Shown: piece after piece, positions 10,371-10,384 of the stretch | Layout: every line of letters begins with the position of its first letter | Position numbering within the stretch: position 1 is the stretch's first letter | NCBI RefSeq assembly: GCF_022846255.1 | Contig: NZ_AP025682.1 | Direction: 5' to 3' (one strand) | Origin: Escherichia coli | Lineage (GTDB): Bacteria > Pseudomonadota > Gammaproteobacteria > Enterobacterales > Enterobacteriaceae | DNA length: 64,000 nt | Notes under the pieces: generated by a model | Database searches by the model: none | Told to the model about the DNA's origin: nothing | Seen by the model: the letters and a program-made list of their open reading frames with translations, nothing else | Made by a program: the position numbers and the translations under genes

Positions 10371-10384
10371 TTGATTTTAATCAG
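10371..10384. promoter_or_regulatory. FNR-like site (TTGAT-N4-ATCAg) about 95 bp upstream of dcuC
   Basis: ttgattttaatcag matches 9/10 of the FNR consensus TTGAT-N4-ATCAA; dcuC encodes an anaerobic C4-dicarboxylate carrier. Confidence 0.4.

Follow-up and report, generated by a model that had tools for sequence, protein, structure and literature searches.

The FNR site upstream of dcuC in Escherichia coli, probable operator of a class II promoter

DcuC, a carrier of succinate and fumarate, is presumed to export succinate when glucose is fermented, and Zientz et al. (1999) are said to have given the first report of regulation of dcuC by FNR. FNR-activated promoters of class II, such as those of narG, dmsA, nirB, nrfA and narK, carry a 14-bp palindrome that lies over the -35 region, with the site at -41.5. 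The dcuB-fumB locus belongs to the same regulon as dcuC and has the same role, anaerobic C4-dicarboxylate transport; dcuB also depends on DcuSR and CRP. Among the FNR-activated promoters with a known start in the genome-wide study of Myers et al. 2013 (PMC3688515), 19 of 23 have sites at -41.5 +/- 4, whilst the position of the dcuC site of E. coli K-12 MG1655 relative to its start was left open. This MG1655 site is the closest described system to the locus analysed here, which lies in a 64 kb stretch of E. coli DNA (the window): the 14-mer, its position relative to dcuC and the neighbouring genes (pagP, dpiA) are common to both and only the host strain differs, so that the site is an already documented one, described as the FNR site of dcuC in K-12. 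The two features that define the locus are as follows.

10371..10384, no strand assigned: FNR binding site TTGATTTTAATCAG (sequence, best PWM match of the spacer, bound in K-12 ChIP, half-site conservation)
10474..11859, + strand: dcuC coding sequence, anaerobic C4-dicarboxylate carrier, 461 aa (open reading frame and RefSeq annotation of matching E. coli loci)

The sequence at 10371-10384, ttgattttaatcag, agrees with TTGAT-N4-ATCAA at 9 of the 10 specified positions, the sole mismatch being the final base (G for A). With the centre of the site at 10377.5 and the dcuC ATG at 10474, the site is centred 96.5 bp upstream of the start codon. The spacer between pagP and dcuC extends over 586 bp (9888-10473, using the RefSeq start of pagP) and has a G+C content of 30% compared to 51.4% for the whole window. 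A preliminary description made from the sequence alone had proposed exactly this, namely a 9/10 match about 95 bp upstream of dcuC in a long AT-rich intergenic region, and was accurate on all three points. The nominal length of the spacer depends on the pagP start that is chosen: the mechanically called open reading frame (9327-9905, ATG at 9905) encodes 192 aa and leaves 568 bp, whilst the RefSeq form encodes 186 aa from a start at 9887 and leaves 586 bp. The neighbours of dcuC are the divergent pagP together with dpiA and dpiB, and across the collection compared the matching region carries a dcuC annotation in 5,422 of 5,426 complete E. coli genomes. Over window positions 9300-11900 the DNA shares 97% identity with MG1655, and no complete E. 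coli genome exceeds 98% in the dcuC region. The type strain of E. albertii, to whose DcuC the protein was reported as 100% identical, reaches only 89% at the DNA level; an assignment of the window to E. albertii was accordingly rejected in favour of a chromosome of the E. coli or Shigella type. At the other end of the window, the region 60200-60950 (genes for a ribose-type ABC substrate-binding protein and an FGGY kinase) occurs in just 630 of the 5,426 complete genomes, indicating that the window includes accessory DNA.

Alignment revealed that the 14-mer and about 100 bp on either flank are identical between the window and K-12 MG1655, with 97% identity over the complete pagP-dcuC spacer, and hence the published K-12 data, although obtained in a strain other than that of the window, all concern the identical site sequence. 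Table S6 of Myers et al. 2013 (PMC3688515) contains the reverse complement of the site, CTGATTAAAATCAA, at position 655281 (U00096.2) with a PatSer score of 12.38, which is above the genome-wide threshold, and flags it as lying at an FNR ChIP-seq peak. ChIP-chip and ChIP-seq were both positive, with the ChIP-seq summit at 655298 (PMC3688515); after verification of the coordinate mapping (655281-655294 in U00096.2 corresponds to 656058-656071 in NC_000913.3, an offset of 777), this summit falls about 10 bp from the centre of the site. The same study places dcuC in Category 1, direct FNR activation, its Table 1 giving a single FNR motif within the peak together with a rise in both sigma-70 occupancy and anaerobic expression; the position entry reads "TSS not in peak region", and previously identified FNR binding is entered as "None" (PMC3688515). 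In RNA-seq dcuC is "Activated" by FNR (Myers Table S8), and its aerobic/anaerobic ratio of 0.05 (Myers Table S12) amounts to about 20-fold anaerobic induction (PMC3688515). Finally, anaerobic expression of a single-copy dcuC::lacZ fusion requires FNR (Oberto et al. 2009, PMC2634741); our literature search did not find direct footprinting or mutagenesis of the site. FNR occupancy, FNR-dependent expression and anaerobic induction have accordingly all been demonstrated for the identical K-12 sequence, which supports the earlier proposal that this site accounts for the anaerobic induction of dcuC.

As a bare motif match, the dcuC site is not above chance. Allowing at most one mismatch, TTGATNNNNATCAA occurs 4 times in the 64 kb window against an expectation of 2.61 +/- 1.54, and using a symmetrised FNR PWM built from the 62 other ChIP-bound FNR sites of Myers et al. 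2013 Table S6 (PMC3688515), the dcuC site scores 11.7 bits, which places it at rank 4 in the window where 3.0 such matches are expected in random sequence. The best match in the window, GTGATATCAATCAA with 13.9 bits (39678-39691), sits inside the entC coding sequence, demonstrating that good matches arise without a promoter context. These figures are what would speak for a chance match in AT-rich DNA without function. Within the pagP-dcuC spacer, the dcuC site is the only credible PWM match, the next best (10007-10020) scoring 7.8 bits. Thus, the PWM scan suggested in the preliminary description singles out the site in its spacer but does not distinguish it across the window, and the significance of the site derives from its position, its conservation and the published binding data rather than from the motif match. 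A functionless match would account neither for the FNR ChIP-seq signal at the identical K-12 sequence nor for the retention of the site and its register in at least 19 genera whilst the flanks have diverged to about 50%; conservation and ChIP data together effectively refute this explanation, whose probability we regard as negligible.

This conservation was analysed by a scan for orthologs with one genome per species, which yielded 80 loci whose DcuC proteins are 86-100% identical in amino-acid sequence; the dcuC start could be identified in 75 of these, and the site counts refer to them. The half-sites have been retained throughout these 75 enterobacterial loci, and a match to TTGAT-N4-(A/G)TCA(G/T) lies within 200 bp of the ATG in 74 of them, mostly 93-107 bp upstream, including loci from Escherichia, Salmonella, Citrobacter, Enterobacter, Klebsiella, Raoultella, Buttiauxella, Kosakonia and other genera. 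One locus, L045 (Citrobacter amalonaticus S646), was considered as a case lacking the FNR site and rejected as such: it retains the site, which lies 334.5 bp upstream of dcuC, the additional distance of about 235 bp being due to an ERIC-like repetitive element (L045:2160-2500) inserted in the leader. The alignment comprised the 175 bp before the ATG in the window and in 21 related loci, and for the conservation statistics three other Escherichia sequences were dropped, leaving the window and 18 other genera. The ten half-site columns exhibit a mean identity of 96% compared to 51 +/- 18% for the rest of the 175-bp region, and they are the best-conserved 10-column mask of that shape in the 175 bp upstream. 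By comparison, the N4 spacer takes 12 different forms among the orthologs. Fixed half-sites around a variable spacer would be expected of a dimer contacting the half-sites only, and in sequence terms this is the footprint expected of a dimeric CRP/FNR-type protein.

Such a footprint raises the question of which family member is bound, given that CRP and FNR sites have the common geometry xTGA-N6-TCAx and that GTGAT forms the left half-site in the ortholog of Salmonella enterica subsp. arizonae. If CRP or another protein of the CRP/FNR family were to bind here instead of FNR, dcuC would be responding to carbon source. Against this, just 6 of the 10 positions of TGTGA-N6-TCACA agree with the site. 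In the left half-site, 73 of 74 loci have the FNR-type T as the discriminating base, and that of the right half-site is C (on the complement) rather than the CRP-type G. Occupancy by FNR in ChIP-seq also contradicts a CRP site, as does the report attributed to Zientz et al. (1999), in which dcuC is said not to be significantly repressed by glucose. We consider a CRP-type site highly improbable, and continue with the site as one for FNR.

In order to place the site within a promoter, we examined the conserved sequence that surrounds it, with the following features on the + strand.

10367..10369, + strand: conserved T-run immediately before the FNR site, at about -52 to -50, which the alpha C-terminal domain of RNA polymerase may contact (84-89% identity, 19 genera)
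10396..10412, + strand: second conserved block, TTTATTnGGCAyATT, including the -10 hexamer (alignment, column conservation)
10407..10412, + strand: predicted sigma-70 -10 hexamer CATATT, CACATT in most genera (fixed spacing, 92% column identity)
10419, + strand: predicted dcuC transcription start, +/- 1-2 nt, placed 7 nt downstream of the -10 hexamer
10419..10473, + strand: predicted 55-nt 5' untranslated region with TTTGGG and the Shine-Dalgarno region ACAGGAAA (alignment, conservation)

The block at 10396-10412 contains columns of very high identity, namely T10402 (100%), G10405 and G10406 (95%) and A10410 and T10411 (100%). Within the hexamer, the second-position A (-11) and the sixth-position T (-7) are 95-100% conserved; A at -11 and T at -7 are the two bases that weigh most in a sigma-70 -10 element. 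The hexamer is otherwise weak, with C at -12. Its distance from the FNR site is almost invariant: of 74 loci, 69 have exactly 22 nt between the end of the site and CAnATT. If the hexamer occupies -12 to -7, transcription would initiate at about 10419 and the FNR site would be centred at -41.5. The equivalent of this predicted start in K-12 is 655246 (U00096.2), and it lies 11 bp from an anaerobic sigma-70 ChIP-seq peak at 655235 (Myers Table S1, PMC3688515); the sigma-70 peak that changes significantly with oxygen is not this one, but that at 655742 beside pagP (Myers Table S2, PMC3688515). The bases from -35 to -30 are GCATTC, unlike TTGACA, and a consensus promoter scan of 9850-10550 returned no complete sigma-70 promoter; the lack of both is consistent with an activator-dependent class II promoter. 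The T-run at 10367-10369 may serve as a contact region for the alpha C-terminal domain.

As an alternative -10 element, TTTATT (10397-10402) was rejected: it has no A at -11, and its use would place FNR at -31.5. The predicted leader contains a conserved TTTGG(G) at 10449-10453 (84-100% across 19 genera), and Rfam returned no family match in 9300-10700, so that the conserved blocks fit no known RNA element. The Cappable-seq supplements (PMC4782308) contain no entry for a mapped dcuC start near the locus, dcuC appears in the supplements for Salmonella D23580/4-74 in annotation and expression tables only, without a mapped start, and a text search of the literature on the dcuC promoter gave matches unrelated to dcuC. 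The location near -41.5 that the preliminary description called for is hence probable from the conserved -10-like hexamer, whilst the literature searched yielded no mapped start with which to compare it.

A genuine FNR site could still act in a different geometry, with transcription starting elsewhere and FNR working through class I or distal activation or through displacement of H-NS. Several published observations lean in this direction: the entry "TSS not in peak region" implies that whatever start Myers et al. had recorded lay outside the FNR peak (PMC3688515); Shimada 2014 (PMC3946193) predicts from genomic SELEX a "constitutive" promoter for RpoD, directed towards dcuC and about 370 bp before its ATG, with the sequence ATGACA-17-AATTAT (window about 10097-10125), and marks the pagP-dcuC spacer as bound by H-NS; and the H-NS ChIP-chip regions 654590-655558 and 655584-656283 cover the spacer (Myers Table S3, PMC3688515). 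In spite of these H-NS regions, Myers Table S6 gives the dcuC FNR site as free of nucleoid-protein overlap (PMC3688515). Such an arrangement fits poorly with the CAyATT hexamer, which is conserved and stands 22 nt from the site in 69 of 74 loci; the far-upstream part of the spacer, by contrast, shows no conservation between genera. Furthermore, the sigma-70 ChIP peak at 655235 is only 11 bp from the class II start, and an FNR site downstream of the start should repress, yet dcuC is activated. The L045 locus is informative here as well, since its 235-bp insertion lengthens the leader downstream of both the site and the hexamer, which stay together as one intact promoter module. A different geometry thus appears unlikely. 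The far-upstream region also contains an inverted repeat of FNR-type half-sites at the wrong spacing, TTGAT-N11-ATCAA (10095-10115), which overlaps the dcuC-facing RpoD promoter ATGACA-17-AATTAT predicted by Shimada 2014 (PMC3946193).

Our preferred reading is that the 14-mer is very probably the operator of a class II FNR-dependent dcuC promoter. Comparison with described class II promoters supports this in several respects: like them, dcuC has no usable -35 hexamer, displays 29.5 nt between the site centre and the first base of the predicted -10 element and is expressed anaerobically in an FNR-dependent manner, and the probable position of its palindrome over the -35 region at -41.5 matches theirs. 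It differs in that its site is among the weaker ones, at 11.7 bits where bound FNR sites have a median of 15.5, and in that the proximal half-site is ATCAG, never the consensus ATCAA in 74 orthologs. Co-regulator sites such as those for NarL or IHF were not identified at the dcuC promoter. The FNR site of dcuB-fumB, TTGATCTGGCACAA, is also weak at 12.3 bits (Myers Table S6, PMC3688515); it has been placed at -132.5, unlike the -41.5 deduced for dcuC, and in comparison with dcuB, dcuC seems to have a simple class II promoter.

The deviation in the proximal half-site is itself conserved: the final base (10384) is G in 68 of 74 loci and T in the other six, with the consensus A in none, and the CA that directly follows is 74-79% conserved, so that conservation runs 2-3 bases past the FNR site (GCA, -35 to -33). 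The proximal half-site therefore looks constrained rather than drifting, to judge from these columns. One tentative explanation, which we hold to be possible though doubtful, is that the imperfection has itself been selected, either by keeping the site weak or because the G and its neighbours are recognised, at the -35 position, by sigma region 4 or a second factor. Were the site kept weak, dcuC would fire only at high levels of active FNR.

The pagP side of the spacer also responds to oxygen in K-12, with pagP (crcA) 3.4-fold higher anaerobically (Myers Table S12) and the sigma-70 ChIP peak at 655742 near the pagP start rising about 10-fold anaerobically (Myers Table S2, PMC3688515). The PWM found no good FNR site in this part of the spacer (9888-10100), where the best match is again the 7.8-bit sequence at 10007-10020. 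A candidate sRNA, Ssr31, has been reported in the pagP-dcuC spacer of Shigella flexneri (PMC4782007), and an ArcA site predicted before dcuC/crcA at 15 bits or more showed no ChIP occupancy (Park et al. 2013, PMC3798270).

Taken together, the exact identity to the K-12 sequence, the conservation of the half-sites and the near-invariant spacing to a -10-like hexamer are established by the sequence comparisons presented here, and we infer the exact start, the class II contacts and the transfer to the strain of the window. In the mechanism that we propose, dimeric [4Fe-4S]-FNR would bind the imperfect palindrome TTGAT-TTTA-ATCAG at 10371-10384 when oxygen is absent, and at about -41.5 would overlap the place of the missing -35 element. 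The bound FNR would bring sigma-70 RNA polymerase to the weak -10 element CATATT (10407-10412), with activating region 1 contacting the alpha C-terminal domain and activating region 3 contacting sigma region 4; these contacts are those well established for class II promoters of FNR and CRP. Transcription of dcuC would then begin near 10419, anaerobically only, and produce a leader of 55 nt.

Anaerobic control of dcuC by FNR is textbook biology of the FNR regulon, documented for K-12, and the site explains why DcuC production is limited to the absence of oxygen. The class II assignment from conservation appears to be a modest refinement of this known site: a promoter that had no usable start in the main genome-wide FNR study can now be assigned to class II (-41.5) with good confidence, owing to a -10 hexamer conserved at fixed spacing across the family and to a matching sigma-70 ChIP peak.
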